A stretch of DNA of 64,000 nucleotides from an uncultured Clostridium sp. (GTDB lineage Bacteria > Bacillota > Clostridia > TANB77 > CAG-508), in NCBI GenBank assembly GCA_958413095.1, contig CATYUF010000001.1, positions 955 to 64,954 of the forward strand, written 5' to 3'. Positions 10,983 to 35,343 of this stretch are shown here, one piece after another. The notes under the pieces were generated by a model. It was not told the origin of the DNA. It did not search any database and saw only the letters and a list, made by a program, of their open reading frames with translations. Within the stretch, counting starts at the first letter, position 1. Every line of letters starts with the position of its first letter. A program made the translations under genes and the position numbers.

Positions 10983-11319
10983 AATTTTTCCTTTCAATTT
11001 AATAATAAAAATTTAGATTAATTATAAAATATTTAAACACATTGTTTTTTATCAATCTATCATTAAATTTATTTTAAATTATTTATAGAATATACATTTA
11101 AAAGTTAAAGTACATTTTATATACTTTAAAATTTATAAATATTAAAAATTAAGCATAAATAAAATATTTAAAATTTAATCAACTAAAAACATTATAATAC
11201 AGAACTAACAAAAATACAATTATATATTACAATTATATTACATTTATAAAAAATATGTTGAAAAATGTACCAGTTTAAATTATAATTAACTTGTATATGG
11301 ATTAACTAAGGAGGAAAAC

Positions 11320-12123: not shown

Positions 12124-12140
12124 TACAAGAAGGAAATAAA

Positions 12141-13334: not shown

Positions 13335-13512
13335 AAAGCAATATTGTAATATTTAATATATAAAAGTATCATTTTTTAGTTATAGTAAATATTAATTTCT
13401 ACAACTTAAATGAAATTATATGAGATGAAAGAAACAAAATATAGATTTAAAAATGTTCTAAAAAATCTTCTTATCGAATACACATTATGTATAAAAGATA
13501 AGGAGATTTTTT

Positions 13513-14151
13513 ATGAAGAAAAACAGAGGAATGAAATTAGTTAACTTAATAAAAGAACATATAAAAAACAATGCTAAAGAATATATAATTGTCACACTAA
13601 TTTTTATAACAGGAATATTTGCAGGAGTATTTTTCTTGAACAATATGCAAGAAACACCAAAGTCAGATGTAACAAATTACTTAAATAATTTTATAACTAA
13701 ATTAAAAGAAAATCAAAATTTAGATATGATAGGGTTATTTAAAAACTCAATAATGCAGAATTTGATTTTAGGAGTAGTAATTTGGTTTTTTGGAACAACT
13801 GTAATTGGAATACCTATTGTTTTTGGACTCGTATTATACAGAGGATTTTGTTTAGGATATACGATTTCTACATCTATATTAGTATTAGGATTAACTAAAG
13901 GATTAACTTTTTCGATTGTTACATTATTGATACAAAATATATTATTTATTCCTGCAATTCTTGCACTAGCTGTTAGTGGCTTTAAGCTATATAAATCAAT
14001 AATAAAAGATAAAAGAAAAGAGAACATAAAACTAGAAATCTTAAGACATACAATTTTTTCATTAATAATGTTAATACTATTAATAATTTCAGCAATAATA
14101 GAAATATTTATTTCAACAAATATTTTAAGTAACATAATAAAATATTTTTAA
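13513..14151 (+). CDS. spoIIM: Stage II sporulation protein M
   Basis: About 210-aa polytopic membrane protein with SpoIIM-like topology and the YRGFCLGY segment, next to xerD. Confidence 0.7.
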   Translation: MKKNRGMKLVNLIKEHIKNNAKEYIIVTLIFITGIFAGVFFLNNMQETPKSDVTNYLNNFITKLKENQNLDMIGLFKNSIMQNLILGVVIWFFGTTVIGIPIVFGLVLYRGFCLGYTISTSILVLGLTKGLTFSIVTLLIQNILFIPAILALAVSGFKLYKSIIKDKRKENIKLEILRHTIFSLIMLILLIISAIIEIFISTNILSNIIKYF

Positions 14152-14250
14152 AAATATCGAAAAATGTATTTACTTTTTTCAAATAGTTTGATATAACATA
14201 TATGGTTAATTTATGTAAATTTTAAAAATATAGAGATAGGGGAAATAAAG

Positions 14251-15132
14251 ATGGAAAGACAATTAAAATTATTTTTTGATTTTTTAGAAAATGATAAAAA
14301 ATTATCAGAAAATACATTACAATCATACAAAAGAGATTTAAAACAATTCAGAAAGTATTTAGAATCTTATGGATTACATTATAACAGAGTAAAAGAAGAA
14401 GATATGGAAAATTACATAAAAGAATTACAAGAACAAGGAAAAAAGGCTTCAAGTATATCAAGATGTATAGCATCTATAAGATCATTTTATCAATTTGCAC
14501 TAAAGCATAAAAAAATAAAAAACGATCCAACAGCACATTTACAATCTCCTAAAATAGAAAAAAGAGTACCTAGTGTATTAACATCAAAAGAAGTAGAATT
14601 ATTATTAAAACAACCTGACAATGAAGACTTAAAAGGAATGAGAGATAAAGCAATGCTTGAATTTGCATATGCAACAGGAATGAGAGTTACAGAAATAATA
14701 TCATTAGATGTAGATGATATAAACTTAGAAGAAGGATATGCAATTTGCAAAGGAACAAATAAACAAAGAATTATTCCATTAGGTTCTTTATGTTTAAAAG
14801 CATTAAAAACTTATTTAGAAGAAGCAAGAGATATATTAATAAAAAATGATGAAGAAAGAGCATTATTTGTAAACATAAATGGAGGAAGATTAACAAGACA
14901 AGGTTTTTGGAAAATAATTAAATACTACAAAGACCAAGCACATATAACAAAAGACATAACACCTCATGTATTAAGACATTCATTTGCAACACATTTATTA
15001 CAAAATGGAGCTGACTTAAAAGCAATCCAAACAATGTTAGGACATTCAGACATATCATCAACACAAGTATATATGCAATTTCAAGACGAAGGTTTAAAAA
15101 ATGTATATAGAAAAGCACATCCAAGAGCATGA
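14251..15132 (+). CDS. xerD: Tyrosine recombinase XerD
   Basis: ATGMRVTE and LRHSFATHLLQNGADLKAIQTMLGHSDISSTQVY, carrying the catalytic R, H-x-x-R and Y. Confidence 0.9.
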   Translation: MERQLKLFFDFLENDKKLSENTLQSYKRDLKQFRKYLESYGLHYNRVKEEDMENYIKELQEQGKKASSISRCIASIRSFYQFALKHKKIKNDPTAHLQSPKIEKRVPSVLTSKEVELLLKQPDNEDLKGMRDKAMLEFAYATGMRVTEIISLDVDDINLEEGYAICKGTNKQRIIPLGSLCLKALKTYLEEARDILIKNDEERALFVNINGGRLTRQGFWKIIKYYKDQAHITKDITPHVLRHSFATHLLQNGADLKAIQTMLGHSDISSTQVYMQFQDEGLKNVYRKAHPRA

Positions 15133-22307: not shown

Positions 22308-22403
22308 GTAAGAAATAATCTTATTACTAATAAATTTTTTAAAGTATTATAAATAATTTTATGATAGTATATAAATTATAAATTGTATAGGAGGTACTTT
22401 TTG

Positions 22404-23570
22404 ATGAAAGATATGAATATTTCAAAAGAAATTAAATATATAGGAGCAAGTGATGAAAATATAAAGTTATTTGAAAATCAATATGTATTAGAAAATGGAA
22501 TGAGTTATAATTCATATGTGATAAAGGACGAGAAAAATGTAATATTAGATACAATAGATGAAAGACTAACCAAAGAGTGGCTTGAAAATTTAGAAGAGGC
22601 ATTAAATGGAGAAGAGCCAGATTATTTAGTAGTTTCTCATATGGAACCAGACCATGCATATAATATTGGTTTAATTGCTGAAAAGTATCCTAAAATGAAA
22701 ATAGTAGGAAATCAAATTACATTTAATATGCTTAATAATTTTTTTGACATAGATTTTTCTAATAGAAAGTTTGTGGTTATGGAAGGTGATGTACTAGATA
22801 TAGGAAAACATAAATTACAATTTTTTATGGCACCAATGGTACATTGGCCAGAAGTAATGGTGACATATGAACAAACAGAAAAAATATTATTTTCAGCAGA
22901 TGCATTTGGTAAATTTGGTTCATTAAATATAGACGAAGAATGGGACTGTGAAGCAAGAAGATATTATTTTGGAATAGTTGGAAAATATGGGATGCAAGTA
23001 CAAGCTTTATTAAAAAAATTAGAAAATTTAGATATAAAAATGATTTGTCCTTTACATGGACCAATATTGAAAGAAAATTTACAATATTATATTAATAAAT
23101 ATGATATATGGAGTAAATATGAACCAGAAGAAGAGGGAATATATATAGCGTGTGCATCAATACATGGAAACACACTAAAAGTAGCAAATGAGATGAAAAA
23201 GATATTAGAAGAAAACGGAGCAAAAAAAGTAGTATTAGGAAATTTAGCAACAGAAGACTGGGCAGAAGCAGTAGAAGATGCATTTAGATATTCGCATTTA
23301 ATAGTAGCAGCTTCAAGCTATAATACAGGAGTATTTCCTCCAATGCAACATTTTTTAGAACATCTAAAAGATAGAAATTATCAAAAAAGAACAGTTGCCA
23401 TAATAGAAAATGGCTCATGGGCGCCATCAGCAGGAAAATGCATGAAAAATATGTTACAGGGAATGAAAGATATAAATGTACTAGAAAATGTTGTAACAAT
23501 AAAGTCAACAATGAAAGAGGAAAATAGAGAGCAATTAAAAGAAATGGCAAAAGAGATTTTAGAAAAATAA
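22404..23570 (+). CDS. FprA-type flavodiiron protein (metallo-beta-lactamase fold plus flavodoxin)
   Basis: Diiron motif HMEPDH (HxExDH) and a C-terminal flavodoxin-like domain. ATG 22404 follows AGGAGG. Confidence 0.8.
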   Translation: MKDMNISKEIKYIGASDENIKLFENQYVLENGMSYNSYVIKDEKNVILDTIDERLTKEWLENLEEALNGEEPDYLVVSHMEPDHAYNIGLIAEKYPKMKIVGNQITFNMLNNFFDIDFSNRKFVVMEGDVLDIGKHKLQFFMAPMVHWPEVMVTYEQTEKILFSADAFGKFGSLNIDEEWDCEARRYYFGIVGKYGMQVQALLKKLENLDIKMICPLHGPILKENLQYYINKYDIWSKYEPEEEGIYIACASIHGNTLKVANEMKKILEENGAKKVVLGNLATEDWAEAVEDAFRYSHLIVAASSYNTGVFPPMQHFLEHLKDRNYQKRTVAIIENGSWAPSAGKCMKNMLQGMKDINVLENVVTIKSTMKEENREQLKEMAKEILEK

Positions 23571-23687: not shown

Positions 23688-24710
23688 TTACTTCAAATTT
23701 TTCCTTCTAAGTTGTCCACAGGCAGCGTCAATATCTGAGCCTAATTCTCGTCTTATTGTAGCAACTATTCCATGGTCATTCAAATAATCTCTAAATTTCA
23801 TAATATTCTTATTTGAACTTTTCATATAAGCACCATTTTCAATTTTATTTATAGGAATTAAATTAACATGGCATATCATACCTTTGAGAAGTTTTACTAA
23901 TCGTTTAGCATCTTCTAAATTATCATTATTTTCCTTAGCAAGAGCATATTCAAAAGATATTCTTCTATGAGTTTTTTCTATATAGTCTCTACAAGCTTGT
24001 AATAATTCTTCTAGTTTATAAGCATCATTAACTGGCATCATTTGGCTTCTTTGTTCATTTGTAGTAGCATGTAAGGAAATTGATAAGGTGCATTGTATAT
24101 TTTCTTCTGCTAGTTTATATATTTTAGGAACTAAACCACTTGTAGAAATACTAATATGTCTAGCACCAATATTTAAACCTTTAGGATTATTAATTATTCT
24201 AATAGCTCCAACAACATTATCATAATTATCTAAGGGTTCACCAATGCCCATAAATACTATATTTGATATTCGTATATTTTCATCCCTTTCAACAGCCATT
24301 ATTTGTTCAACAATTTCTCCAGTAGATAAGTTTCTAATAAAGGGAATACCCGTTGATGCACAAAATTTACATCCCATTTTACAACCAATTTGGGAAGAAA
24401 CACAAATGCTATATCCATGATGATATTCCATAAGTACAGTTTCAATAGCATTTCCATCTAATACATCGAATAAATATTTTTTTGTTCCATCAGATGCAAC
24501 TTGTTTTTTTAAAATATTAAATTGCTTTATAGTATAATTTTCTTTTAATTTTTCTCTCAACTCTAAAGACAAATTTGTCATTTCATCAAAACTTGAAACC
24601 CTAGATTCATATATCCACTTAAATATTTGTTCTGCCCTGAAGGGTTTTTCACCTATCTTTTTTAGCTCTTCCTTAAGTTCGTCTAAGTTATAATCTTTTA
24701 TATTTTTCAT
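23688..24710 (-). CDS. rlmN: 23S rRNA/tRNA adenine-C2 methyltransferase RlmN (radical SAM)
   Basis: QIGCKMGCKFCAS cluster, the C-terminal catalytic Cys region GSDIDAACGQL, and the N-terminal FRAEQIFKW. Confidence 0.92.
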   Translation of the reverse strand: MKNIKDYNLDELKEELKKIGEKPFRAEQIFKWIYESRVSSFDEMTNLSLELREKLKENYTIKQFNILKKQVASDGTKKYLFDVLDGNAIETVLMEYHHGYSICVSSQIGCKMGCKFCASTGIPFIRNLSTGEIVEQIMAVERDENIRISNIVFMGIGEPLDNYDNVVGAIRIINNPKGLNIGARHISISTSGLVPKIYKLAEENIQCTLSISLHATTNEQRSQMMPVNDAYKLEELLQACRDYIEKTHRRISFEYALAKENNDNLEDAKRLVKLLKGMICHVNLIPINKIENGAYMKSSNKNIMKFRDYLNDHGIVATIRRELGSDIDAACGQLRRKNLK

Positions 24711-24719
24711 TTTGATTTT

Positions 24720-24772
24720 AGTCCTTATATATAATATATTTAGGTTTTTTAATTAGGTTTTACCTATAAACC
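24720..24772 (-). promoter_or_regulatory. Conserved 5' leader motif shared with gatD (copy 1)
   Basis: On the minus sense: GGTTTATAGGTAAAACCTAATTAAAAAACCTAAATATATTATATATAAGGACT, 10 nt before the rlmN ATG. About 85% identical to 44810-44861. Confidence 0.45.
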
Positions 24773-24775
24773 ATA

Positions 24776-24961
24776 TTAATATTTTGGTATTGATTTTGGT
24801 ATAATTACATTTTTAGGTCTATTTACTTTTATTAAATTTTCAAAATTATATATCATTTTATAATCTTTACCATAAATAAATTTCAATAAATTAATTCTTA
24901 TTTTCTCAAAAGGAGAATTTTTTACAATAATAAGACTTGTTTGATTTTGGTTTTTTTGCAT
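24776..24961 (-). CDS. Small hypothetical protein (61 aa)
   Basis: ATG 24961 is preceded by GGTGAT. The longer track ORF (to 25045) runs into repeat family 1 copy B, so its 5' extension is doubtful. Confidence 0.35.
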   Translation of the reverse strand: MQKNQNQTSLIIVKNSPFEKIRINLLKFIYGKDYKMIYNFENLIKVNRPKNVIIPKSIPKY

Positions 24962-24980
24962 AATATCACCAATCCATTTT

Positions 24981-25090
24981 TTATTGTTGTATAGGAAAAA
25001 TCGACTTTTATCTTGAAGCAATATAGAATTTTCCATATACAACAAGTAAAAGTTACCTTTAAAAAGAGTTGCAATAGTTTTACTAACATA
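24981..25090 (+). repeat. Intergenic repeat family 1, copy B
   Basis: TTATTGTTGTATAGGAAAAATCGACTTTTATCTTGAAGCAATATAGAATTTTCCATATACAACAAGTAAAAGTTACCTTTAAAAAG..., collinear with copy A. Confidence 0.75.
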
Positions 25091-25345
25091 ACTTCGATAC
25101 TTTTCTTCTAATTTATATAGATAACATTACTATAAAAATGGTATTTTGTCAATTTACTTTTAAATTATGATAGTAAATATTGTATGTTAGCCAATGATTT
25201 GATAGCAAATGTAGTTGTTATTCTATATCTATAAAATTTAGATTTAATTACTTGTAAATATTATAACATAGAAGCAGTATGTAGTGTAAAATTACTAAAA
25301 ATAAAAATTGAAATTACAAGGTGAAAGGTGAAAAAAACAAATTAA

Positions 25346-25374
25346 TTGACATAATGATGAATAAAATGTATAAT
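25346..25374 (+). promoter_or_regulatory. Consensus sigma-A promoter
   Basis: TTGACA (25346-25351), a 17-nt spacer ending in TG, then TATAAT (25369-25374), 66 nt upstream of the 25441 ATG. Confidence 0.6.
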
Positions 25375-25440
25375 ATAAATATAAATTACAGAAAAAAAGC
25401 TTTCCAAAATTCAATGAATTAGGAAAGAACAGGAGGAATT

Positions 25441-25893
25441 ATGACTAAAAAAATTATATCTATGCCAACAGGATTTAATCCAAGTGAATGGTCACGGAAA
25501 ACAAATTGCTATATGTATGCAATAAATCATCAGAAAGATAATAACCCAAGAGATGTAGGAGAATTATCTGGTAATTTGATAAAAGACTACTATACCGTAG
25601 ATGAAATTAAAGAAAGGTTATTCGAAGATATGAAAATGCTTAATATGGAAATAAAAAAAGCAACATATGAAGAAGAGTGCCTTGAAGATGAATGGAAAAT
25701 AGCATTATTTTATCGAGAAGAAGATGGAGATTTTCACTTTTTAAGAGAAGACTATCACAACAGATGGTCACATAAAACAAAAGGAAGAAAACCATCTAAT
25801 AAGGATTATAGTAATGCAACAATTATTAATCCTAGATGGGCAAACTTAATGGAATATGAATTTGTAGAGTTTTACAAGTTAAAATGCCATTAG
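25441..25893 (+). CDS. Cytoplasmic putative Cys-His (papain-fold-like) hydrolase, 150 aa
   Basis: No signal peptide. Candidate nucleophile in TNCYMYA and candidate His in DGDFHFLRED...WSHKTKG. SD AGGAGG. The family is not recognised with certainty. Confidence 0.6.
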   Translation: MTKKIISMPTGFNPSEWSRKTNCYMYAINHQKDNNPRDVGELSGNLIKDYYTVDEIKERLFEDMKMLNMEIKKATYEEECLEDEWKIALFYREEDGDFHFLREDYHNRWSHKTKGRKPSNKDYSNATIINPRWANLMEYEFVEFYKLKCH

Positions 25894-25910
25894 TTATTTT
25901 ATATTTTATT

Positions 25911-25946
25911 AAAAAGCTTGTTTTTAAACAAAATACAAGCTTTTTT
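25911..25946 (+). terminator. Intrinsic terminator
   Basis: Perfect 11-bp stem AAAAAGCTTGT/ACAAGCTTTTT followed by a T tract. Confidence 0.75.
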
Positions 25947-26123
25947 AGTTTATGGGTAAAAACTAGTATTAAAGAAAAATGAGAGAAAGATAGGAATAGG
26001 TAATAAAAAAACAGGAATATAAATAAAAGTTTTTATAAAACTAAAAAAAATAAATTTCATAAATGATTAATATAATTATATGAAAATAAAAAAGAATTAG
26101 TAAATTAAAGTATTATAATAAAA

Positions 26124-26363
26124 CTAATTCTTTTTTATTTTATAATGTTTATCATCAGTATAACCTAATAACCAAATAGGAGAAACATCAAAAAGAGTTG
26201 CAATTTTGTCAATCATAGTAGGTCCAATATTTTGAATTTGTCCACTAGCATATTTAGAAATAGTAGACTTGGATTTTAAACCTAATTTTTCAGCAATTTT
26301 TTCATAAGTTAAATCTGATTGGTTAATAAGTTCAGTAAATCTTTCATGAAAAATATATTTCAA
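26124..26363 (-). CDS. XRE-family HTH transcriptional regulator (79 aa)
   Basis: LTYEKIAEKLGLKSKSTISKYASGQ is a classic Cro/CI-type HTH. A hairpin terminator (AAGAATTAGT/ACTAATTCTT) overlaps its stop. Confidence 0.85.
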   Translation of the reverse strand: MKYIFHERFTELINQSDLTYEKIAEKLGLKSKSTISKYASGQIQNIGPTMIDKIATLFDVSPIWLLGYTDDKHYKIKKN

Positions 26364-26397
26364 ATATATTCACCTCTTTAAAAAATATATTGAAAAT

Positions 26398-26426
26398 ATT
26401 ATAACATTAAAAAATAAAAATGTAAA
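26398..26426 (-). promoter_or_regulatory. Promoter for the minus-strand XRE gene
   Basis: On the minus strand: TTTACA, 17 nt, TATAAT (forward TGTAAA 26421-26426 and ATTATA 26398-26403). Confidence 0.5.
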
Positions 26427-26469
26427 TAGTAAGTTTTATACATAAAAAGTAAAAAAATGGAAAAATATA

Positions 26470-26498
26470 TTGACAAAGCACGAAAAATGATATATCAT
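26470..26498 (+). promoter_or_regulatory. Promoter for the plus-strand XRE gene and probably the downstream operon
   Basis: TTGACA (26470-26475), 17 nt, TATCAT (26493-26498). AAAAATATATTGA occurs twice in the divergent region (about 26382 and 26461). Confidence 0.5.
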
Positions 26499-26529
26499 GT
26501 TTCTTAATAAGAAACAAAAAGGAGCAAAT

Positions 26530-26784
26530 ATGGAACCTAAAGTTATAGGAAATAGAATAAAAGAATTAATGACTATGGAAAAAATTGATAAAAAAGAACT
26601 AGCAGATAGTTTAGATTTAACAATGCTTGAATTAGAAAAAAAGCTTAATGGTGAAGAAGAATTTTATATTAGTCAAATGATTAATATAAAAAAAATATTT
26701 CATCTTAATTTAGAAGTTTTTACAAAATTATTTTTTGAAGAAGATTTTGATTTGGAAGGAACTTTTACTAATTTATATAAATAG
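26530..26784 (+). CDS. XRE-family HTH regulator (84 aa)
   Basis: IGNRIKELMTMEKIDKKELADSLDLTMLELEKKLNGE is HTH-like. ATG 26530 follows AAAGGAG. The track start 26497 lies inside the -10 box. Confidence 0.7.
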   Translation: MEPKVIGNRIKELMTMEKIDKKELADSLDLTMLELEKKLNGEEEFYISQMINIKKIFHLNLEVFTKLFFEEDFDLEGTFTNLYK

Positions 26785-26796
26785 TTCAACAAAAGA

Positions 26797-26822
26797 AGAG
26801 AAGATAAAACTTCTCTATTTTT
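26797..26822 (+). terminator. Weak hairpin (terminator or attenuator) between the XRE gene and the operon
   Basis: 7-bp stem AGAGAAG/CTTCTCT, loop ATAAAA, then ATTTTTG. Only about 26 nt separate it from the HAD gene ATG, which leaves no room for a separate promoter. Confidence 0.45.
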
Positions 26823-26848
26823 GTAATAAAAAATAAGGAGAATAGTTT

Positions 26849-27598
26849 ATGGAAGAAAAATTTAAGAAAAAATTATCAGGTTTAGATTTAGTTATTTTTG
26901 ATTTAGATGGTACATTAATTGATTCAAATGGTGTTCATAATTATCTAGATATAGAGTTAGTTCGTTCACTTGGAGAAACTAAAAATCCGGAAGAAATTTT
27001 ACAAGAAAGAGAATTATTTTTTAAAAATAATAATATAGGCGATATATATTTAAACTATTGCGAATATTTAAAAACAAAATATAAATCTAATATGTCAAAA
27101 GAAGAAATTTTGCAATATCGAAGAGATTTATCAAAAAAGATTTCAAAAGATATCAAATATAAACCAGATGCAGATAAAATGATAAAATACTTGAAAAGTC
27201 AAGAGATAAAGATTGCCTTGGGAACAGTTTCAAGAAGAGAAACTATAAATATTTATATTAATGAAAATGAAAATATTAAAAATAAATGTGATTTACAAGA
27301 ATATTTTGATTTTATAGTGACCAAAGATGATGTTAAATTAAAGAAACCTAATCCAGAAGTTTATAATAAAATAATAGAAAAGTTTAATATTTCAGATTTG
27401 TCTAAATGTATTGTTATAGAAGATTCATTAACAGGTGTTATTGCAGCAAAGAAAGCGAATCTCGATGTTATAGTAGTCTATGATAAATATTCAGACAAAG
27501 ATAGAGAAAAAATTAATGAACTCGCAGATTATAATGTGGCAGATTTCAAAGAATTAATTGAATTATTTAAAAAAAGTAAAATGAAAGGAGAATTTTAA
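26849..27598 (+). CDS. HAD-superfamily phosphatase (beta-PGM-like subfamily IA)
   Basis: Motif I FDLDGTLIDS, motif II GTVS, K-containing motif III, motif IV IEDSLTG. SD AAGGAG. Confidence 0.8.
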   Translation: MEEKFKKKLSGLDLVIFDLDGTLIDSNGVHNYLDIELVRSLGETKNPEEILQERELFFKNNNIGDIYLNYCEYLKTKYKSNMSKEEILQYRRDLSKKISKDIKYKPDADKMIKYLKSQEIKIALGTVSRRETINIYINENENIKNKCDLQEYFDFIVTKDDVKLKKPNPEVYNKIIEKFNISDLSKCIVIEDSLTGVIAAKKANLDVIVVYDKYSDKDREKINELADYNVADFKELIELFKKSKMKGEF

Positions 27599-27599
27599 A

Positions 27600-28589
27600 A
27601 TGAGTTCACCATGTGTATTTAGAAATAGAGAAACAAATAAGTATTTAGCATTTATAGAGATAACTAATTCATGTAATATGAGATGCAAACACTGTATGAA
27701 TTGGTCTATTGAAAATTCAAACAATTGTTTTGAAAAAGAAAAAATATTGAGATTAATAAAGGAGCTTTATGATGATAATACAGAGGAAATATATATATCA
27801 GGAGGAGAACCATTACTATATCCATATATTGATGATGTGATTTTGTATGCCAATTCATTGGGGATAAAAGTAACTCTTGCAACTAATGCTCTTGAGATTC
27901 CTAATCATTTAAAAGCAATAAAAGAAGGAGTACAATTAGTATCAATTAGTCTTGATGGTATAGGAAAAACACATGACAAATTTAGAGGAGTAACTGGAGC
28001 ATTTGATAATTGTGTGAAAATGTTTAAGTTATTAAGAGAAAATAATATAAAAACTAGAATAAGTGCTATGATATGGAAAGAAAACATTAACGAACTAGAA
28101 GAGATGATTTCTCTTGCCAAAACTTGTGGAGTTTCTAAAGTTAATTTAGCATTTTTAATACCAGAAGGAAGAGCTAAGTCTGATGATACAATCAAATTAC
28201 CTATTGATAAATATAAAGAAATGATTGATATGGTATCAAATTTGAGAAAAAAGTATAAATCAGAAAATTTTGATATAGAAATTAGAAGAAATAATATTTT
28301 GAATAAAGATAGCGTAGATTGTCCAGGAGGAAGAAATTTAATACATATAAATGTAAATGGAAAAGTATCACCATGTTCTTGGATTGCAAAGTTAGATATA
28401 AACAATGAATTTTCAGGAGATTGGCCTAAAAATAGTATTAAAGAATGTATAAATAAATTTCAAAGTTTTGAAAAAACAGTAAAGTTAAGAAAAAATAAAT
28501 ATGGATATTGTGGATGTATTGCTTTATCTAAAATATATAATGAAAACTTTACAGCACCAGATCCATTAAATGAATTTTTGAAAAAATAA
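27600..28589 (+). CDS. Radical SAM enzyme with a C-terminal auxiliary Cys cluster (twitch/partial SPASM)
   Basis: ITNSCNMRCKHC (CX3CX2C) and SGGEPLL. C-terminus has DCPGG...(17 aa)...PCSW and YGYCGC. Confidence 0.85.
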   Translation: MSSPCVFRNRETNKYLAFIEITNSCNMRCKHCMNWSIENSNNCFEKEKILRLIKELYDDNTEEIYISGGEPLLYPYIDDVILYANSLGIKVTLATNALEIPNHLKAIKEGVQLVSISLDGIGKTHDKFRGVTGAFDNCVKMFKLLRENNIKTRISAMIWKENINELEEMISLAKTCGVSKVNLAFLIPEGRAKSDDTIKLPIDKYKEMIDMVSNLRKKYKSENFDIEIRRNNILNKDSVDCPGGRNLIHINVNGKVSPCSWIAKLDINNEFSGDWPKNSIKECINKFQSFEKTVKLRKNKYGYCGCIALSKIYNENFTAPDPLNEFLKK

Positions 28590-28614
28590 GAAAAGTAAGG
28601 AAAGAATAGAAAAT

Positions 28615-29352
28615 ATGAATAAATATGCAATAATAACTGGTGTAGCATCTGGAATAGGTGAATGTATAGCAGAAAAATTTATAGAAGAAGGAATATATGT
28701 TTTTGGAATAGATGAAAATATTCCAAAGAATAATAAAATAGAATATTTTAAATGTGATATCAGAGATGAAAAAAGAATTATTGATATAATCAATAAAATA
28801 AAAGAAAAGACAGAGAGGATAGATTATCTAATAAATGCAGCAGGGATATTTTGCTATAAAGAAAGAAACTTAATTGAAAATCTTTCAAAAGAAGAATGGC
28901 AAAATGTAATTGACGTTAATTTAACAGGAACTTTCTTAATAACAAAATACACAATACCATTATTAAAAAATTCTTTAAATGGAAATATAATTAATTTAAG
29001 TTCAGAGCAAGTTGTTTTACCACAGATAAAAAGTGCACCATATGCTATAACTAAATCAGGAATTGAAATGTTTTCAAAAGTACTTGCACTTGAATTGTTA
29101 GAAGCAAAGATTAGAGTTAATACTATAGCACTGGCTTCTGTAAAAACTAATTTTTTGAAAAGATATAAAAAAGATGATGAAGTAATAAATAAAATGATGG
29201 AAAATACCAATGAAAATATGCCTTTTGGAATTATTGAAGCATATGATGTATATAAATTAGTTAAATATTTGATAGAAAAAGATAATAAAATAACAGGACA
29301 AACTATTCTTATGGATAGTGGAGTTGTAATAGATGTAAATAATAAGAAATAG
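28615..29352 (+). CDS. Short-chain dehydrogenase/reductase
   Basis: Cofactor motif TGVASGIG and catalytic S...YAITK (YxxxK). Confidence 0.85.
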   Translation: MNKYAIITGVASGIGECIAEKFIEEGIYVFGIDENIPKNNKIEYFKCDIRDEKRIIDIINKIKEKTERIDYLINAAGIFCYKERNLIENLSKEEWQNVIDVNLTGTFLITKYTIPLLKNSLNGNIINLSSEQVVLPQIKSAPYAITKSGIEMFSKVLALELLEAKIRVNTIALASVKTNFLKRYKKDDEVINKMMENTNENMPFGIIEAYDVYKLVKYLIEKDNKITGQTILMDSGVVIDVNNKK

Positions 29353-29361
29353 GAGATATGT

Positions 29362-30549
29362 ATGAAAAAAATAAAATTTGATATAGATGAAAAAAATAAA
29401 CTATATTTTCTACCAGAATATAATAGATTTGCATTAAATAATTGCAATTTTAAAATAGAGCCAGATTATTATGAAGAATCATTAGTAAAACTAAGATTAG
29501 AAATATCACATTTATGTAATGGAAGATGTAAATATTGTTTAGTTTTTGGAAATCATGTTGAGAAATTTGATGTTTTGGATATTAAGGAATTTTGGAAAGA
29601 ATTTAGTAATAAAGAATGGTTTAAAAATTTAAAAAGCATTTTTATTATAGGAGGAGAACCATTACTTTATTTCGAAGAGTTAAGTTTCATTATGGATAAT
29701 TTTAAAGGAAGAATTAGTTTTTCAACAAATGGAACATTATTAACAGAAGAAATGGTAAAAAAATTTTCAGAATCAAATGTTTCTATATATATTTCTTTAG
29801 ATGGTCCAAGATTTGAAGATAATATTAATAGAGTATATACAAATGGAAAATATATGTACCCTGACATTATAAAAGGAATACAGCTACTAAAGAAATATAA
29901 TGTTTCGTTTGGAATTTTTATGGTAGCATGTAAAGAAACAATACATAAAGCAAAAGATATGATTTTAGAATTAGATGAAGAATATTCTCCATCAAGAATA
30001 GGATATAGTCTTCCACATTGGACGCCAGATTATAAAGATGAAGATTTATCAGAAGAATTTAGAGATGTTTTAATTGAACTTTATAAAAATAGACAAAAAA
30101 TAAAAGCTGATATTCCACAAATGAGTTGGAGATTAAATCCATTACGAGAAGGGAAAATAAAAAAATTTTCATGTGGATTACATACTACTCAAACGACCAT
30201 TTTACCGGATAAGTCTTTTGTTAGATGTTCAAAGATAGATAATAAAAATGATAATTTAAAAGATTATGTTACAAATGAATTATTGAATAAAAATTCACCT
30301 GTAGAATTAGCAAAAAATGCAGATTCATGTTGTTCTAAATGTATAGCTGTATCTTGTTGCGGAGGTGGTTGTCCATTTGATGGAATGAAAAGATTTAAAT
30401 GTTTAACAGATAAAAGAGAATGTGTAATCACACCACCACTTATCGAAATGGCAATTAATGATATTGTAAAAGGTTTAAAGAATAGTAAAATTAAGATAAA
30501 AGATGGACTAATAGATAAAGAAATTATTGATAAATTGTTGTGGAGTTGA
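29362..30549 (+). CDS. Radical SAM/SPASM-domain enzyme
   Basis: SHLCNGRCKYC (CX3CX2C) and IGGEPLL. Full SPASM signature CX2CX5CX3C in CSKCIAVSCCGGGC, with additional upstream and downstream Cys. Confidence 0.88.
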   Translation: MKKIKFDIDEKNKLYFLPEYNRFALNNCNFKIEPDYYEESLVKLRLEISHLCNGRCKYCLVFGNHVEKFDVLDIKEFWKEFSNKEWFKNLKSIFIIGGEPLLYFEELSFIMDNFKGRISFSTNGTLLTEEMVKKFSESNVSIYISLDGPRFEDNINRVYTNGKYMYPDIIKGIQLLKKYNVSFGIFMVACKETIHKAKDMILELDEEYSPSRIGYSLPHWTPDYKDEDLSEEFRDVLIELYKNRQKIKADIPQMSWRLNPLREGKIKKFSCGLHTTQTTILPDKSFVRCSKIDNKNDNLKDYVTNELLNKNSPVELAKNADSCCSKCIAVSCCGGGCPFDGMKRFKCLTDKRECVITPPLIEMAINDIVKGLKNSKIKIKDGLIDKEIIDKLLWS

Positions 30550-30554
30550 TTTTT

Positions 30555-31220
30555 ATGAAAATAGATAATATAAAGGAAGTTATGTTGGGGCACATTGCAA
30601 ATAATGTAGAAGTAGTAATAATAACTCCATTGAAGTCAACATATAGGAGTTTAAAAGAGCGATTTGAAATTAAAGAAGTATATGAAAAAGCTTTTTTTGA
30701 AAATTGTGTATTTAAATTAAAAAAAAATAGAAGAAAAGGAATGATTATTTTATCTCCGCAAGGCATTGCAGCAAAAGATATAGTAGAATTATTTAAAAAC
30801 ACTAAAATTATATTTTTTGGATTAGCAGGAAGCTTAAATCCAAATTTGAAAATAGGTAGTTTTGTAGAAGTAGAAACGGCGATAAGCCAAAAAGAAAAAT
30901 TTAAATTAACTACAATGGGAAAGTTAATGACAGTAAGATGTGGATATTCACCATGTTTAATTGGTAAAATAGCAAAAGAATATTGTGATATGTCAAAAAA
31001 ACAAAAATGTGATGTTGTTGATATGGAAACGGTATTTTGTGCTAAAACAGCAATTGAAGCTAATAATAAATTTATAGTATTATTATTAATTTCAGACATT
31101 CCTGAAATAATTAATTTTTGGGAATTATCAGAAAACATGAAAATAAAACTTGCTGAGAGCAGAAAAATTGCAATAGATAAAATAGAAAATTATGTTAATA
31201 TTTTAATAGAAAAGGAATGA
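30555..31220 (+). CDS. PNP/MTAN-superfamily nucleosidase or nucleoside phosphorylase-like protein
   Basis: FGLAGSLNPNLKIGSFV, VVDMETVFCAKTA and LISD match the PNP_UDP_1 (Pfs/MqnB/HpnG-type) core. ATG 30555 lies 9 nt after GGAG. Confidence 0.7.
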   Translation: MKIDNIKEVMLGHIANNVEVVIITPLKSTYRSLKERFEIKEVYEKAFFENCVFKLKKNRRKGMIILSPQGIAAKDIVELFKNTKIIFFGLAGSLNPNLKIGSFVEVETAISQKEKFKLTTMGKLMTVRCGYSPCLIGKIAKEYCDMSKKQKCDVVDMETVFCAKTAIEANNKFIVLLLISDIPEIINFWELSENMKIKLAESRKIAIDKIENYVNILIEKE

Positions 31221-31221
31221 A

Positions 31222-32124
31222 GTGAAAATGGAAGAAGAAATACTAATAAAATATATTGAAACTACCAGTAAATGTAATTATTCTTGTCCGATATGTGTGC
31301 CAAGAACTAGAAATTGTCATCTTGATATGAATGAATTTTACTCAATTATAGACAATAATTTAGATTTATTTTATAAAAAAGCAATTTGGATGGATTTCAA
31401 TGGAGAACCTTTAGTAGATCCATACTTTTTTAATAGAGTAAAATATATGCATAGTAAGGGAATTAATACAAGATTATCTACAAATGGAGCATTGCTTAAT
31501 GAAGAAAATAGAATGAAAATGGCAACTTCTGGTATAAGTTATATTGTTGTGTCGATAGGAACTTTAAATTCTTCTTTATACAAACAAATCAGAGGAATAG
31601 ACAATTTATCAAATGTTTTAAACAATTTAATTGAATTAAAAAAATGTATTGATAAAACAAATTCCAAAACTGAACTTCAAGCTGTTATGATAGATACAGG
31701 AGAAAGTTTAAATAGAGAAGAATTTATAAAGTATTTTCATAAGTTAGGAATTAATGTAGCATTTCATAATTTTACTAATAGATCTAAAAGTATTGAAATG
31801 GATATTAATCCAAAAAAAAGAAATTTTGATATGTATAAAAGAGGTGAATGCAAAGGATTAAAAAGTAATATTATAATACTTAGTAATTGTGAAGTAGTTA
31901 CTTGTTGTTGTGATCTTTTAGCACAAAATTCATTGGGGAATTTGAGAGATTATGACTATTCTGTAAAAAAATTAATACAAAATGGAAAAATTGATAAAAT
32001 TATTTCAGATTTAAGAAATCATAAATATTATGGTGCCTGTAAAAATTGTTCTGATTGGATTTATTATCAAGAAGGTGCAAAAGAAGAATATGTAACTGTT
32101 TACCCTGTAAAAAAGGATGTGTAA
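31222..32124 (+). CDS. Radical SAM enzyme with a Cys-rich C-terminus (SPASM-like)
   Basis: TSKCNYSCPIC (CX3CX2C) and FNGEPLV. C-terminus has NCEVVTCCCD and GACKNCSDW. Start is GTG 31222 or ATG 31228. Confidence 0.85.
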   Translation: MKMEEEILIKYIETTSKCNYSCPICVPRTRNCHLDMNEFYSIIDNNLDLFYKKAIWMDFNGEPLVDPYFFNRVKYMHSKGINTRLSTNGALLNEENRMKMATSGISYIVVSIGTLNSSLYKQIRGIDNLSNVLNNLIELKKCIDKTNSKTELQAVMIDTGESLNREEFIKYFHKLGINVAFHNFTNRSKSIEMDINPKKRNFDMYKRGECKGLKSNIIILSNCEVVTCCCDLLAQNSLGNLRDYDYSVKKLIQNGKIDKIISDLRNHKYYGACKNCSDWIYYQEGAKEEYVTVYPVKKDV

Positions 32125-32130
32125 TTTGGA

Positions 32131-33081
32131 ATGTGTAATAGGAGATTTGTTGTAATAGGAGATTTAATTGCTGATTTATATTATAATGGAACTAAATTAA
32201 TTGGAATTGATGGTGGGAGCTCAAGATATAATGTTATAGCTAATTTAGCATCAATGAAATGTAATACAGCACTTATTGGAGGATGTGGGAATGACAAAAT
32301 TGGAAATATAGTATTAGAGAGATATAGAAAATTAGGCGTTGATATTTCAGGTGTAATTTATAAAAATAAACCTACAAGAGCTTATCATTTAATAGTAGAT
32401 CAAGCTATGTTACCAAAAGTAACTTACGAATGTAGTAAAATTTCACCATCTAATTATAAAAGTACATGGTATGATGATAGTCTACAAGATATCAAATATT
32501 GTAGAAGTCAAGTGACAAAAAATGACATTGTAGTTTTAGACAAATTAGATGAATTTTCTCTCGATATTATTAATAATTTTGAGTGCTATAAAGCTCTTGA
32601 TATTGGTCATTCTAAAAGAATAGAGAAATTAAGTGATAGTCAAATTATAGAATTAAAAGAAAAAATTTCATTATTACAATTAAATGAAAGAGTAATTCCT
32701 TATTTGATGCAAAGATATGGATATAGTAATATAATAGATATATATAAATTATTTCAACCAAAACTGATGATTGTGACAAGAGGAAGAAAAGGTGCCGACT
32801 TTATTTTTGGAAACAAGAAAATCCAAAAGAAAATTAAAAGTAGTACCGAGGAATTAGACCCTACAGGAGCAGGAGATGCCTTTTTCTCTGTTTTTATAAA
32901 AGAATATTTTAATGGTTCAATAGAGAAAATTGATGATGAATTTATAAATGAAACATTCTCTAAAGCTTTAACTTTGACAGGAAATGTAGTAAAACATATA
33001 GGTGCAAGAGGACATATTTATGCAAGAACCTTTGACAAAATTGTTTCAAATAAAGAAAAAGAAGAGATAAAAGAATTGTAA
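32131..33081 (+). CDS. PfkB-family (ribokinase-like) sugar/nucleoside kinase
   Basis: PfkB signature 2 DPTGAGDAFFS and the N-terminal VIGDLIAD / GGSSRYNV region. Confidence 0.8.
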   Translation: MCNRRFVVIGDLIADLYYNGTKLIGIDGGSSRYNVIANLASMKCNTALIGGCGNDKIGNIVLERYRKLGVDISGVIYKNKPTRAYHLIVDQAMLPKVTYECSKISPSNYKSTWYDDSLQDIKYCRSQVTKNDIVVLDKLDEFSLDIINNFECYKALDIGHSKRIEKLSDSQIIELKEKISLLQLNERVIPYLMQRYGYSNIIDIYKLFQPKLMIVTRGRKGADFIFGNKKIQKKIKSSTEELDPTGAGDAFFSVFIKEYFNGSIEKIDDEFINETFSKALTLTGNVVKHIGARGHIYARTFDKIVSNKEKEEIKEL

Positions 33082-33107
33082 AATATAAAATTGAAAGAGT
33101 GAAAAAT

Positions 33108-33686
33108 ATGAAGATTTATGTAACTAGACATGGAGAAACAGATTGGAATGTAAAGCATAAAAATATAAAAATAGGTAATAACATTAAAAATAGTTCGATT
33201 ACAGATGATGATTTTATAGATATGAATACTATTGGAATAAAACAAGCAGAAAATTTAGCAAAGCAATTAAAAAATACTAGTATTGATTTAATTATTTGTT
33301 CACCATTACCAAGAGCTAAACAAACTGCGGAAATTATAGTAAAAGGACGAAATATACCAATAATTTTCGACAGAGATATTTCTGTGAGAGAATTTGGGGA
33401 ACATAAGGGAAAAGTTGCTGATGTTGATTTTGATTTTACACACGGTTTTTGGAGCTATAAAGCCAACATAAAATATAAAAAAGCAGAAAATATTCGAGAC
33501 TTTTTTAATAGAGTATATTCTTTTTTGGACAAAATAAAAGAAAAATATGAAGACAAAAAAATTTTATTAGTAACACATGGAAGTATAGGGATTCCAATAT
33601 ATTGTTATTTTAATGGCATACCAGATGATGATAATTTATTAAAATATGTTTTAGAAAATTGTGAAATAGCTATTTATGAAACATGA
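33108..33686 (+). CDS. Histidine phosphatase (phosphoglycerate mutase/CobC-like family)
   Basis: Catalytic VTRHGETDWN and the second His in LVTHGS. An Asn/Ile-rich insert of about 10-15 aa follows the RHG motif. Confidence 0.8.
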   Translation: MKIYVTRHGETDWNVKHKNIKIGNNIKNSSITDDDFIDMNTIGIKQAENLAKQLKNTSIDLIICSPLPRAKQTAEIIVKGRNIPIIFDRDISVREFGEHKGKVADVDFDFTHGFWSYKANIKYKKAENIRDFFNRVYSFLDKIKEKYEDKKILLVTHGSIGIPIYCYFNGIPDDDNLLKYVLENCEIAIYET

Positions 33687-33740
33687 ATATATCATACATA
33701 ACATATTTATTATGAATATAAAAAGTAATTTTAAAATTGA

Positions 33741-33771
33741 AAAGTGTTACATTGGAATATTGTAACACTTT
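33741..33771. terminator. Hairpin between the convergent operon and spoIVA
   Basis: Perfect 11-bp stem AAAGTGTTACA/TGTAACACTTT with a 9-nt loop. The flanking U tracts are weak. Confidence 0.5.
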
Positions 33772-33864
33772 CTTCCTTTCTAAAAAATTAATTTTTAAGA
33801 TAAAGTTTATATCATAGTGAGGTTACTTTTGCAGTAGTAGCCTATATCATAATCACTTCTTATT

Positions 33865-35343
33865 TTAAAGAATAATACAAATTAATCCACCACTACCTTC
33901 GTTAACAATTCTTTCCAAAGTTTCTTGTAATTTTACCTGAGCTTCTTCTGGCATTTTAGCAAGTTTAGTTTGTAAGCCTTCATTAACAAGTTCATGTAAG
34001 CTTTTTCCGAAAATATTTGATTCCCAAATTTTCTTAGGGTCACTTTCAAATTCAGATAGTAAATAATTAACAAGTTCTTCAGACTGTTTTTCAGAACCAA
34101 CAATAGGAGAAACTTCAGTAGCTACATTAGTACGAATTAAGTGAATACTTGGAGCTGTTGCTTTTAATTTTACACCAAATTTTGACCCTTGTTTTACCAT
34201 TTCAGGTTCTTCTAATATTAATTCATCTATTGATGGAGTGACGATACCATAGCCTTTTCGATTAACTTCATCTAAAGCATAAGAGATTTTATCATATTTT
34301 TTCTTTGTACTAGCAAGTTCAGATATAATACTAAATAAATCACCTTCGTTAGTAACAGCAACACCAGTAATTTCAGATAGAACTTTATAAAACAATTCTT
34401 CTTTTAATTGTATTTCAACATTAACTTTTCCTGTACCTAGTTGAATATCTGAAATAGAAGTTTTTGAAATAATTTCTGTTTGCTTAATAGTATCAACACA
34501 ATTAGAGATTTCTTTTAGCATATTAATACTTGAAAAAGCATCTTTAATTTCCTTATATAATTCAGCTTTAAGAGGATGCTCAATACTTAATCCATCAATC
34601 CATCTAGGAAATTTTATACTAATTTGATCAACAGGGAATTCATATAAAATCTTTGAGAAAATAGTATTAATATTTTCTATCGTTAAATATTCACAATTAA
34701 TTGGCATTACAGAAGTATTATATTTATCACTTAGTTTTTTAGCTAGTTCTTTTGCATATTCAGAGTCAGGGTCATTAGAGTTTAATAAAATTATAAATGG
34801 TTTATTAAGTTCTCTTAATTCACTTACAACTCTTTCTTCAGCTTTGATATAATCTTCTCTTGGAATATCAGTAATTGAACCATCTGTTGTAACTAAAATT
34901 CCAATAGTAGAATGTTCAGTTATTACTTTTTTTGTTCCAATTTCGGCAGCTTTTTCAAAAGGAATTTCTTCTTCAGACCAAGGGGTTTTTACCATTCTAG
35001 GCATATCATCTTCTAAATATCCTATAGCATTATCAACTAGATAACCAACACAATCTACAAGTCTTGTCTTAAATTTTAAATTATCATCTAATGTGATTTC
35101 AATAGCTTCATTAGGAATAAATTTGGGTTCTGTCGTCATTATAGTTTTTCCACCTGCACTTTGTGGAAGTTCATCTTTAGCTCGTTCTTTTTTATATTCA
35201 TTATCAATATTAGGAATGACTAATAAGTCCATAAATCTTTTTATAAAAGTAGATTTACCAGTCCTTACAGGACCGACAACTCCTACATAAATATCACCAT
35301 CAGTTCTTTTTGCGATGTCTTGATACAATCTTGTATTTTCCAT
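33865..35343 (-). CDS. spoIVA: Stage IV sporulation protein A (spore coat morphogenetic ATPase)
   Basis: 492 aa, with the N-terminal Walker A GVVGPVRTGKSTFIKRFM and the conserved C-terminal GSGGLICIIL. Confidence 0.92.
   Translation of the reverse strand: MENTRLYQDIAKRTDGDIYVGVVGPVRTGKSTFIKRFMDLLVIPNIDNEYKKERAKDELPQSAGGKTIMTTEPKFIPNEAIEITLDDNLKFKTRLVDCVGYLVDNAIGYLEDDMPRMVKTPWSEEEIPFEKAAEIGTKKVITEHSTIGILVTTDGSITDIPREDYIKAEERVVSELRELNKPFIILLNSNDPDSEYAKELAKKLSDKYNTSVMPINCEYLTIENINTIFSKILYEFPVDQISIKFPRWIDGLSIEHPLKAELYKEIKDAFSSINMLKEISNCVDTIKQTEIISKTSISDIQLGTGKVNVEIQLKEELFYKVLSEITGVAVTNEGDLFSIISELASTKKKYDKISYALDEVNRKGYGIVTPSIDELILEEPEMVKQGSKFGVKLKATAPSIHLIRTNVATEVSPIVGSEKQSEELVNYLLSEFESDPKKIWESNIFGKSLHELVNEGLQTKLAKMPEEAQVKLQETLERIVNEGSGGLICIIL

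Follow-up and report, generated by a model that had tools for sequence, protein, structure and literature searches.

What might a bacterium make with three radical S-adenosylmethionine (SAM) enzymes that are encoded side by side with a sugar-type kinase, two putative phosphatases, and a nucleosidase-like protein? This question is raised by an operon at positions 26849-33686 of a 64,000-nucleotide stretch of contig CATYUF010000001.1 from an uncultured Clostridium sp. (the whole stretch is referred to below as the window). On the evidence that follows, this operon is probably the minimal form (type A) of a conserved biosynthetic cassette that tailors a phosphorylated small molecule of the nucleoside or pentose type, and not a peptide, and that in a second form (type B) conjugates an amino acid. 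The original prediction, made from this stretch alone, had proposed radical tailoring of a phosphorylated sugar or nucleoside; every part of that proposal that could be tested held, and the substrate and product are those that we infer. Elsewhere the core of the cassette is linked to aminoacyl-tRNA synthetases, tRNA-Ile genes, amino-acid ligases, and exporters, a link that is invisible from the window alone and that narrows the likely product class.

The operon comprises eight intact open reading frames (ORFs) on the forward strand, packed tightly into 6.8 kb in the order HAD (haloacid dehalogenase-type) hydrolase, rSAM1, SDR (short-chain dehydrogenase/reductase), rSAM2, PNP (purine nucleoside phosphorylase)-like protein, rSAM3, PfkB kinase, and histidine phosphatase (Table 1). 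Successive genes are separated by 1, 25, 9, 5, 1, 6, and 17 nt, with a 10-nt overlap at the rSAM2/PNP-like junction should GTG 30540 be the start codon, and each gene is preceded by a Shine-Dalgarno-like motif. The locus had been announced as a nine-gene operon, a count at odds with the eight genes named in the same prediction; nine are obtained only if a small helix-turn-helix (HTH)-like gene upstream is added. All of the predicted domain assignments were confirmed by Pfam. The HAD protein matched HAD_2 with 100 bits ('FDLDGTL' in its translation), the SDR matched adh_short with 147 bits, the kinase matched PfkB (PF00294) with 57.5 bits against a cut-off of 25.8 ('IDGGSS' and 'DPTGAGDAF'), and the last protein matched His_Phos_1 with 114 bits ('TRHGETDWN' and 'THGS'). 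The first and last proteins thus belong to the HAD-IA hydrolases and to branch 1 of the histidine phosphatases, for which phosphatase or mutase activity is predicted. The best matches of the kinase were weak ones to ribose-1-phosphate and sugar kinases and met no equivalog cut-off; indeed, none of the eight operon proteins (0/8) reached the cut-off of a curated NCBIfam equivalog.

All three radical-SAM proteins scored above the cut-off of the Pfam Radical_SAM model (PF04055; 93, 72, and 41 bits), and their CX3CX2C motifs, which start at residues 25, 52, and 18 after N-terminal extensions of no more than about 45 residues, were invariant in alignments of homologs. The full CX2CX5CX3C SPASM pattern claimed for rSAM2 and the partial SPASM/twitch pattern claimed for rSAM1 were borne out by invariant cysteines in these alignments. 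In rSAM2, seven further cysteines (C271, C289, C324, C327, C333, C337, and C354) were invariant and make up a full SPASM pattern, with C324, C327, C333, and C337 forming the CX2CX5CX3C motif, while the Pfam SPASM model gave no score on this protein. The auxiliary cysteines of rSAM1 (C5, C241, C259, and C306, of which three to four are invariant) form a twitch-like pattern. Those of rSAM3, which showed the highest conservation of all proteins in the cassette, are C210, C228 (with C229 nearly invariant), C273, and C276, and this protein scored just above the cut-off of PF13186 (22.4 versus 21.5 bits). By these patterns all three proteins are SPASM/twitch radical-SAM enzymes, with predicted binding of auxiliary clusters.

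Family-level comparisons placed none of the three with a characterised enzyme. The best NCBIfam match of rSAM1 was of the AhbD/NirJ type (129 bits versus a cut-off of 500), that of rSAM2 was PapB (83.5 versus 340), and that of rSAM3 was the tungsten-cofactor oxidoreductase maturase (77.5 versus 380); the model for BlsE gave 62 bits versus a cut-off of 400. Sequence searches of the PDB returned SkfB and BlsE for rSAM1 (BlsE at E 1.8e-14), CteB and anSME for rSAM2, and no match for rSAM3. The AlphaFold model of rSAM3 (mean predicted local distance difference test score, pLDDT, 88) was nearest to BtrN, followed by the peptide maturase SuiB, and then by DesII, BlsE, MoaA, and viperin, with template-modeling (TM) scores of 0.56-0.69. 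The structural resemblance of the modeled rSAM3 is generic and leans toward small-molecule enzymes; BtrN, which the original prediction had named as an example of small-molecule chemistry, is nearest in a list that also includes peptide enzymes.

Matches of this sort raise the possibility that the SPASM/twitch enzymes act on a peptide or protein whose gene lies at another site, such as a distant precursor or an enzyme in need of a cofactor or cross-link made by radical-SAM chemistry, as with anSME and the tungsten-cofactor maturase. The best NCBIfam and PDB sequence matches do include PapB, FibroRumin, SkfB, CteB, and anSME, with rSAM3 pointing to the tungsten-cofactor maturase, and NTP_transf_5 and ABC-2 transporter genes, which accompany type B relatives, also occur in clusters for ribosomally synthesized peptides that undergo post-translational modification (RiPPs). 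However, all scores were 4- to 10-fold under the family cut-offs, and for named RiPP maturase families even the best match (PapB, see above) fell short. A PqqD or RiPP recognition element (RRE) domain was absent from all eight proteins by Pfam, and the N-terminal extensions of the radical-SAM proteins are too short to hold one. That no precursor peptide accompanies the operon had also been predicted. Among the ORFs of at least 20 amino acids listed for the window, no candidate precursor was found, and the lengthy intervals upstream of rSAM1 in three relatives (L001, L002, and L009; related loci are referred to by such numbers) had nothing in common. When ORFs of 12-100 amino acids from 20 cluster-bearing loci were clustered all against all, the output consisted of alternative-frame shadow ORFs within the core genes and of low-complexity noise, and once long ORFs had been masked, no conserved small ORF was left in or beside these 20 loci. 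The predicted lack of a precursor thus extends from the window to the family as a whole. No conserved candidate client protein was seen in the neighborhood either, and the constant partners of the three enzymes are nucleoside and sugar-phosphate enzymes. Membership in a RiPP cluster was rejected on the lack of a conserved precursor, of an RRE/PqqD domain, and of a family-level score, and we regard peptide or protein maturation in general as highly improbable.

The constant partners point instead to a small phosphorylated substrate. The PNP-like protein matched PNP_UDP_1 (PF01048) with 44.2 bits against a cut-off of 25.1, and its AlphaFold2 model (pLDDT 92) gave Foldseek TM scores of 0.6-0.72 to PNP, MTAP, MTAN, and futalosine hydrolase (0.70 for the last). 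Its invariant residues D156-M157-E158 and D181-x-P183 align with the VDMET and ISD-P motifs of AMP nucleosidase and MTAN, and match the regions that in these enzymes hold the ribose-binding Glu and catalytic Asp. With both the fold and the Glu/Asp motifs retained, the protein belongs to the PNP/MTAN superfamily. It is a divergent member: its best NCBIfam match was HpnG, at 32 bits versus a cut-off of 187, and its homologs form a tight family of 71 database members, after which scores drop sharply. As to a signature of a hydrolase (the water-activating Glu12 of MTAN) or of a phosphorylase (a phosphate-binding Arg/Ser), the N-terminal strand-loop reads V-I-I-T-P-L-K-S-T, with T24 and P25 invariant and S28 nearly so, and lies outside the alignments returned by the tools; it does not match what we take to be the acidic motif of MTAN. 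In addition, four cysteines are invariant throughout the family, namely, C129 and C134 (within CGYSPC), C152, and C162, which may form a metal, Fe-S, or redox site. We do not know of CGYSPC in any characterised PNP/MTAN enzyme.

Locus contexts were gathered by exact-protein look-ups and by a scan of GTDB species genomes, and were tabulated by tblastn. The five-gene core rSAM1-SDR-rSAM2-PNP-like-rSAM3 was found in conserved order at about 20 independent loci of Bacillota with unrelated flanks and at 31-84% identity, in hosts comprising uncultured gut Clostridia, Lachnospiraceae, Ruthenibacterium, and Paenibacillus; a lack of synteny among homologs would have spoken against the original prediction. 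The arrangement goes far beyond what chance would give, since this gene order is repeated on many contigs that are unrelated to one another. The families concerned are well bounded: that of rSAM2 has about 112 members with identities of at least 44%, after which identity drops sharply to 32% or less, and that of rSAM3, about 85 proteins, is likewise ended by a sharp drop. The HAD gene lies directly upstream of rSAM1 in every cluster of the window type, and the SDR gene always follows rSAM1 or precedes rSAM2. The exhaustive HMMER search with rSAM1 also returned a 568-amino-acid HAD-rSAM1 fusion protein (P0283), with 54% identity to the HAD protein and 69% to rSAM1. The fusion suggests that the two proteins act together; an artefactual loss of the stop codon is the alternative. 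The cassette also appears to be mobile. The block that holds the operon had been described as accessory, between the core genes rlmN and spoIVA; these flanks were confirmed here and were seen in none of the related loci, which argues that the cassette moves between genomes. The copy in L052 lies on a conjugative element, and other copies adjoin integrases, AbiE, insertion sequence (IS) elements, or a methylase of a restriction-modification system. In plasmids, tblastn with rSAM2 found only distant (25%) enzymes of the peptide-maturase type.

A rearranged and distant version of the cluster was found in a Bacteroidota metagenome-assembled genome (L040, 2823-18059), in the order rSAM3, SDR, rSAM2, a 306-amino-acid protein, a 373-amino-acid protein, a methyltransferase, rSAM1, PNP-like protein, and cysteinyl-tRNA synthetase (CysRS). 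The 306-amino-acid protein gave a weak match to tRNA-synt_1b (TrpRS/TyrRS type; E 4e-5), and the cluster directly follows AbiEi/AbiEii genes and a type I restriction-modification methylase gene.

Neighbors of this kind, together with the radical-SAM and kinase genes, would also suit a role in conflict with phages, in which the operon would produce an intracellular modified nucleotide, for example a chain terminator or depleting agent, in the manner of prokaryotic viperins and the kinases that partner them. All three radical-SAM proteins matched the pVip models of PADLOC (E 1e-22 to 4e-7), a kinase and phosphatases are at hand, some relatives adjoin AbiE, a type I restriction-modification methylase, Abi_2, integrases, or a conjugative element, and the accessory block of the window has XRE-type regulators adjacent. 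Nevertheless, the pVip matches covered the radical-SAM core only, and the scores of the three proteins against viperin itself (NF038283; 69, 48, and 37 bits) were far under the cut-off of 180 bits. PADLOC otherwise gave only weak matches, to the small upstream HTH ORF. In phages, tblastn with rSAM3 found nothing. Moreover, the exporters and amino-acid ligases of the relatives misfit an intracellular defence. We consider an anti-phage role very unlikely.

Two types of cassette can be told apart by the genes that surround the core. Type A, which adds the HAD gene together with the PfkB and/or histidine phosphatase gene, is represented by the window, L004-L007, L010-L020, L046, and L048. No exporter was recognised in type A clusters; L048 has an NhaC-family transporter gene directly upstream of its HAD gene. 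Seen alone, type A might serve catabolism or salvage, acting on a nucleoside or pentose derivative (a deoxy-sugar or 5'-deoxyadenosine, for example) and feeding it into central metabolism via kinase, phosphorylase, and mutase, with radical chemistry of a kind that suits anaerobes. The PfkB kinase with its weak likeness to ribose-1-phosphate kinase, the PNP-fold enzyme, and the HAD and histidine phosphatase proteins, both from superfamilies that contain mutases, are what such a pathway would use; the cluster of the window has no exporter or resistance gene, the NhaC-type transporter of L048 would fit uptake as part of it, and near the cluster of L006 lie genes for an NrtR-type regulator, a PNP, and phosphoribosyl pyrophosphate synthetase. 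Yet three dedicated radical-SAM enzymes would be a high price to pay for catabolism, and an aldolase, an isomerase, or any other connection to central metabolism is lacking. The cassette also occurs in a patchy, island-like manner, and the company of its core in type B loci (ABC exporters, ligases for amino acids, carrier proteins, and synthetases) amounts to a biosynthetic signature. Catabolism or salvage is therefore judged unlikely.

That biosynthetic signature comes from the type B/C loci (L001, L002, L003, L008, L021, L022, L024, L040, L052, L053, L055, and L056). In varying combinations, these loci add a protein of about 185 amino acids, ABC transporters, NTP_transf_5, a hydrolase of the metallo-beta-lactamase (MBL) fold, and CYTH. 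L024 and L056 further carry a DegT aminotransferase, a family 2 glycosyltransferase (GT2), and two more radical-SAM enzymes, and L024 also has an NDP-sugar-type nucleotidyltransferase (NTP_transferase) and an APH-type kinase; extra PNP enzymes were likewise present among the relatives. A sugar or nucleoside-phosphate substrate fits with a family whose members add a nucleotidyltransferase, a kinase, DegT, GT2, CYTH, and extra PNP enzymes.

Each type B/C locus is, in addition, accompanied by a system for activating an amino acid. A type-2-like isoleucyl-tRNA synthetase (IleRS) of about 1040 amino acids with a DUF5915 C-terminus was adjacent to or embedded in five clusters, in five different arrangements (L001, L003, L022, L024, and L056); in L024, its gene separates the PNP-like gene from rSAM3 and is encoded on the opposite strand. 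Two of these loci (L003 and L056) have a tRNA-Ile(GAU) gene as well. Of the other loci, L040 has a CysRS gene overlapping the last cluster gene, L053 a leucyl-tRNA synthetase (LeuRS) gene two genes away, L002 and L008 an adenylation-thiolation (A-T) didomain, L055 adjacent AMP-binding and PP-binding genes, L021 an A-domain homolog (found by tblastn only), and L052 a SerRS-like amino acid:acyl carrier protein (ACP) ligase with its ACP. The IleRS proteins were 70-85% identical between hosts of 34-62.5% G+C. When pairs of loci were compared, IleRS and rSAM2 were 85% and 67% identical between L024 and L056, and 76% and 67% identical between L003 and L022; the 85% identity of IleRS holds between genomes of 34% and 62.5% G+C. 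Because the IleRS identities track those of rSAM2, we infer that IleRS is co-inherited with the cassette.

In L003, the tRNA-Ile(GAU) and IleRS genes at the cluster border occupy 11222-11297 and 11336-14455, and in L056, 12130-12203 and 565-3714. The two tRNA genes are 95% identical, and that of L003 is preceded by a TTGACA...TAGGAT promoter-like motif. Rfam found no T-box RNA in the five IleRS-bearing loci, and nothing turned up upstream of the IleRS of L022 when a permissive scan was applied there. At the gathering threshold, the Rfam matches in the window and 17 loci were limited to tRNAs, a glmS ribozyme, and TwoAYGGAY RNA, and no match lay upstream of the operon. A CysRS gene with tRNA-Cys 3 kb upstream of the clusters of L017 and L048 was rejected as a further linkage; it may be housekeeping, with a cysK-like gene adjacent.

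As to how an activated amino acid might be used, no aminoacyl-tRNA-dependent transferase (of the AcmF-like, PEARL, GNAT/Fem, or CDPS type) was recognised among the type B/C proteins. A candidate conjugating enzyme of type B clusters is the protein of about 185 amino acids (L001 12834-13535 and its homologs), which always follows rSAM3 in these clusters and has the invariant motifs TYLLLHP and FLS-x-x-HCPD. This family matched no Pfam, NCBIfam, or PDB profile, and a type B protein of about 375 amino acids matched nothing in Pfam or NCBIfam. A guess that the 185-amino-acid protein resembles nucleoside diphosphate kinase (NDK; 'HCPD' against 'HGSD') found no support in the PDB profile search.

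No published description of this gene set was found in the library searched, which gave analogies only. With no NCBIfam cut-off reached and only generic PADLOC matches, the predicted lack of a match to any characterised pathway stands. Self-resistance IleRS proteins are carried by the mupirocin, thiomarinol, and SB-203208 clusters, which encode pathways to polyketides or sulfonamides in Pseudomonas, Pseudoalteromonas, or Streptomyces. Like these, the relatives of the window have a type-2-like IleRS within or beside a biosynthetic cluster and moving with it; here, however, the cluster is a radical-SAM cassette of anaerobic Bacillota, a tRNA-Ile is also present, and the resistance role is putative. 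The radical-SAM gene followed immediately, and possibly with translational coupling, by a gene of the PNP/MTAN fold recalls MqnE/MqnB of the futalosine pathway and HpnH/HpnG of the hopanoid pathway, but rSAM2 is a SPASM protein, neither MqnE nor HpnH was among the models listed as matches, and no chorismate or hopanoid genes are present. BtrN, DesII, and BlsE are resembled by rSAM3 in structure and, in the case of BlsE, by rSAM1 in sequence; the identity is only 12-16%, with the TM scores given above and no family cut-off met, and peptide maturases score alike. AprD4 and its partner AprD3 are paralleled by a radical-SAM gene that here always adjoins an SDR gene.

Two nucleoside pathways offer precedents for the proposed logic of the type B/C clusters. 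Ascamycin, a nucleoside sulfamate, is made by the acm cluster of Streptomyces sp. 80H647, in which a cluster-encoded alanyl-tRNA synthetase, AcmD, both supplies Ala-tRNA and resists the product, and in which AcmF is the transferase (PMC12945691). The presence of a full-length synthetase of its own in a nucleoside-type cluster is matched by the IleRS, tRNA-Ile, CysRS, and LeuRS of the window's relatives. In contrast to the present case, no radical-SAM enzyme takes part in the aminoacylation of ascamycin, and the organisms and enzyme families are different; no AcmF-like transferase was recognised here, and the window itself has no synthetase. In the sinefungin (sin) pathway, a radical-SAM enzyme forms a C-C bond to build the nucleoside scaffold, phosphorylation by a kinase/phosphatase pair is cryptic, amino acids are derived from aminoacyl-tRNA, and a conjugate is exported (bioRxiv 10.64898/2026.05.21.726688). 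This combination of radical-SAM chemistry, a kinase/phosphatase pair, and tRNA-dependent aminoacylation is what the proposed type B/C pathway would share. The sinefungin enzyme is B12-dependent, whereas no B12-binding domain was found by Pfam in the three radical-SAM proteins, and the proteins of the window include no LanB-like/PEARL or arginase domain and no precursor-like peptide; furthermore, the present cassette differs in its three radical-SAM enzymes and in its SDR and PNP-like protein.

If the operon is a biosynthetic cassette as favored here, its pathway could run as follows. The PfkB kinase would phosphorylate a nucleoside or sugar, or else the pathway would begin from a nucleotide, and the phosphate would serve as a handle while three successive radical-SAM reactions act on this small nucleoside or pentose-type substrate. 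rSAM1 and the SDR may act as a pair, with radical oxidation or dehydration followed by NAD(P)H-dependent reduction, as in AprD4/AprD3. rSAM2, with its two predicted auxiliary clusters, and the BtrN-like rSAM3 could then perform additional C-H functionalisation or form C-C bonds. The PNP-like enzyme would cleave a purine N-glycosidic bond, either of a pathway intermediate or of the by-product 5'-deoxyadenosine, and the HAD and histidine phosphatase proteins would shift or remove the phosphate. In type B/C clusters, the core product would probably be joined to an amino acid and exported, and the cluster-borne synthetase might supply aminoacyl-tRNA, give self-resistance, or both, as AcmD does for ascamycin. 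With synthetase, tRNA, ligase, and exporter all absent from its 64 kb, the window would make only the unconjugated core metabolite.

Several observations weigh against this interpretation. The three radical-SAM families, the SDR, and the divergent PNP-fold family have no characterised member, and no substrate, product, or activity is attached to any of them. All three radical-SAM enzymes also generically resemble peptide maturases (PapB, SkfB, SuiB, and CteB). No synthetase, tRNA, amino-acid ligase, or exporter was found within the 64-kb window, so that the amino-acid conjugate is argued from relatives at 54% identity or less. L006 and L007 have no PNP-like gene and have a standard PNP gene nearby instead, for which reason the PNP-like protein may perhaps merely clear 5'-deoxyadenosine. 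Finally, the SDR gene is frameshifted across one whole lineage and a number of type B copies are in pieces or interrupted by IS elements, which indicates that the cassette is often decaying.

In the lineage of species-level genomes concerned (L046 9247-9991 and the equivalents in L010-L013 and L047, corresponding to about position 28863 of the window), the same 1-nt insertion splits the SDR into ORFs of 89 and 166 amino acids, both of which are conserved; possible readings are a pseudogene, an enzyme in two parts, and a programmed frameshift. Of the decayed copies, L022 (1-13501) keeps only the rSAM2, IleRS, PNP-like, and 185-amino-acid protein genes, and L050/L051 (7900-14300) keeps rSAM3, the 185-amino-acid protein gene, HAD, and CYTH beside an IS (rve) element. 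In L055, the SDR and PNP-like genes are fragmented (9591-11859), and a TwoAYGGAY RNA match of 123 bits lies beside an integrase gene upstream of the cluster (5319-5483, reverse strand).

The enzyme combination is unusual among radical-SAM-dependent small-molecule gene clusters, and the synthetase/tRNA link in the relatives is striking. Five families without a characterised member are kept together across the Bacillota and offer a compact target for the discovery of enzymes and products, and genome-mining rules based on SPASM will label the family as sactipeptide or ranthipeptide RiPPs. It is conceivable, if a good deal more speculative than the assignment to small-molecule biosynthesis, that the core makes a new nucleoside or pentose scaffold and that the exporter-bearing relatives join it to Ile, Leu, or Cys by way of the synthetase and tRNA of the cluster or of carrier-protein ligases, giving a new class of translation inhibitors, from anaerobes of gut and soil, that mimic aminoacyl-adenylates or are of the reaction-hijacking type, with the window encoding the pathway to the free 'warhead'. 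If true, this would be an amino-acid-conjugated translation inhibitor from anaerobic gut bacteria, from which, to our knowledge, few such small-molecule antibiotics are known.

Table 1. Features of the operon and its immediate surroundings in the window.
Feature	Position	Strand	Remarks
rlmN	23688-24710	-	Flank of block
Promoter-like site, TTGACA-17-TATCAT	26470-26498	+	11/12 matches; upstream of small HTH gene; consensus match only
Small HTH-like gene	26530-26784	+	ORF opens at 26497; probable start ATG 26530 with AGGAG Shine-Dalgarno motif; weak BetR/HTH-type matches
7-bp hairpin with T-run	26797-26816	+	Terminator or attenuator-like; between HTH gene and HAD gene
HAD-IA hydrolase (phosphatase or phosphomutase type), 249 aa	26849-27598	+	DLDGT motif
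rSAM1, 329 aa	27600-28589	+	CNMRCKHC; one twitch-like auxiliary cluster (predicted)
SDR oxidoreductase, 245 aa	28615-29352	+	TGxxxGIG and YxxxK
rSAM2, 395 aa	29362-30549	+	CNGRCKYC; full SPASM
PNP/MTAN-fold protein, 221 aa	30555-31220	+	ORF opens at GTG 30540; database homologs begin at ATG 30555
rSAM3, 300 aa	31222-32124	+	CNYSCPIC; short SPASM/twitch tail
PfkB-family kinase, 316 aa	32131-33081	+	GG and TGAGD motifs
Histidine phosphatase/phosphomutase superfamily protein, 195 aa	33099-33686	+	RHGET motif
11-bp hairpin, about -12 kcal/mol	33741-33771		After last gene, between operon and spoIVA
spoIVA	33865-35343	-	Flank of block; convergent with operon

As for the boundaries of the operon (Table 1), the hairpin that follows the last gene is its likely terminator. 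The small HTH-like gene ends 64 nt upstream of the HAD gene and is a possible regulator of the operon; no homolog of it appeared in the tblastn table of related loci. The operon has a G+C content of 25.0% and the 2 kb that separate it from rlmN one of 21.8%, compared with about 26% on either side. This AT-rich stretch, which looks like separate accessory cargo, holds a 150-amino-acid ORF without a family match (25441-25893) and a divergent XRE-type HTH gene (26124-26363, reverse strand). A search of the related loci, made for the 150-amino-acid ORF alone, gave no homolog. No island-flanking repeats were found in 24650-34000.

Downstream of the type A cluster of L004/L005 (13890-17338) lie genes for a CntK_N-acetyltransferase fusion, a stand-alone HGTP_anticodon domain of 130 amino acids (the anticodon-binding domain of class II synthetases), an M15 peptidase, and a Ham1-type NTP pyrophosphatase. 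Elsewhere in the window are genes for a HemN-like radical-SAM protein (1716-2939), a TsaD-GNAT fusion (9323-10498, reverse strand), and an ODP/flavodoxin protein of the flavodiiron type (22383-23570). Counting rlmN and the HemN-like gene, the window has five radical-SAM genes in total.

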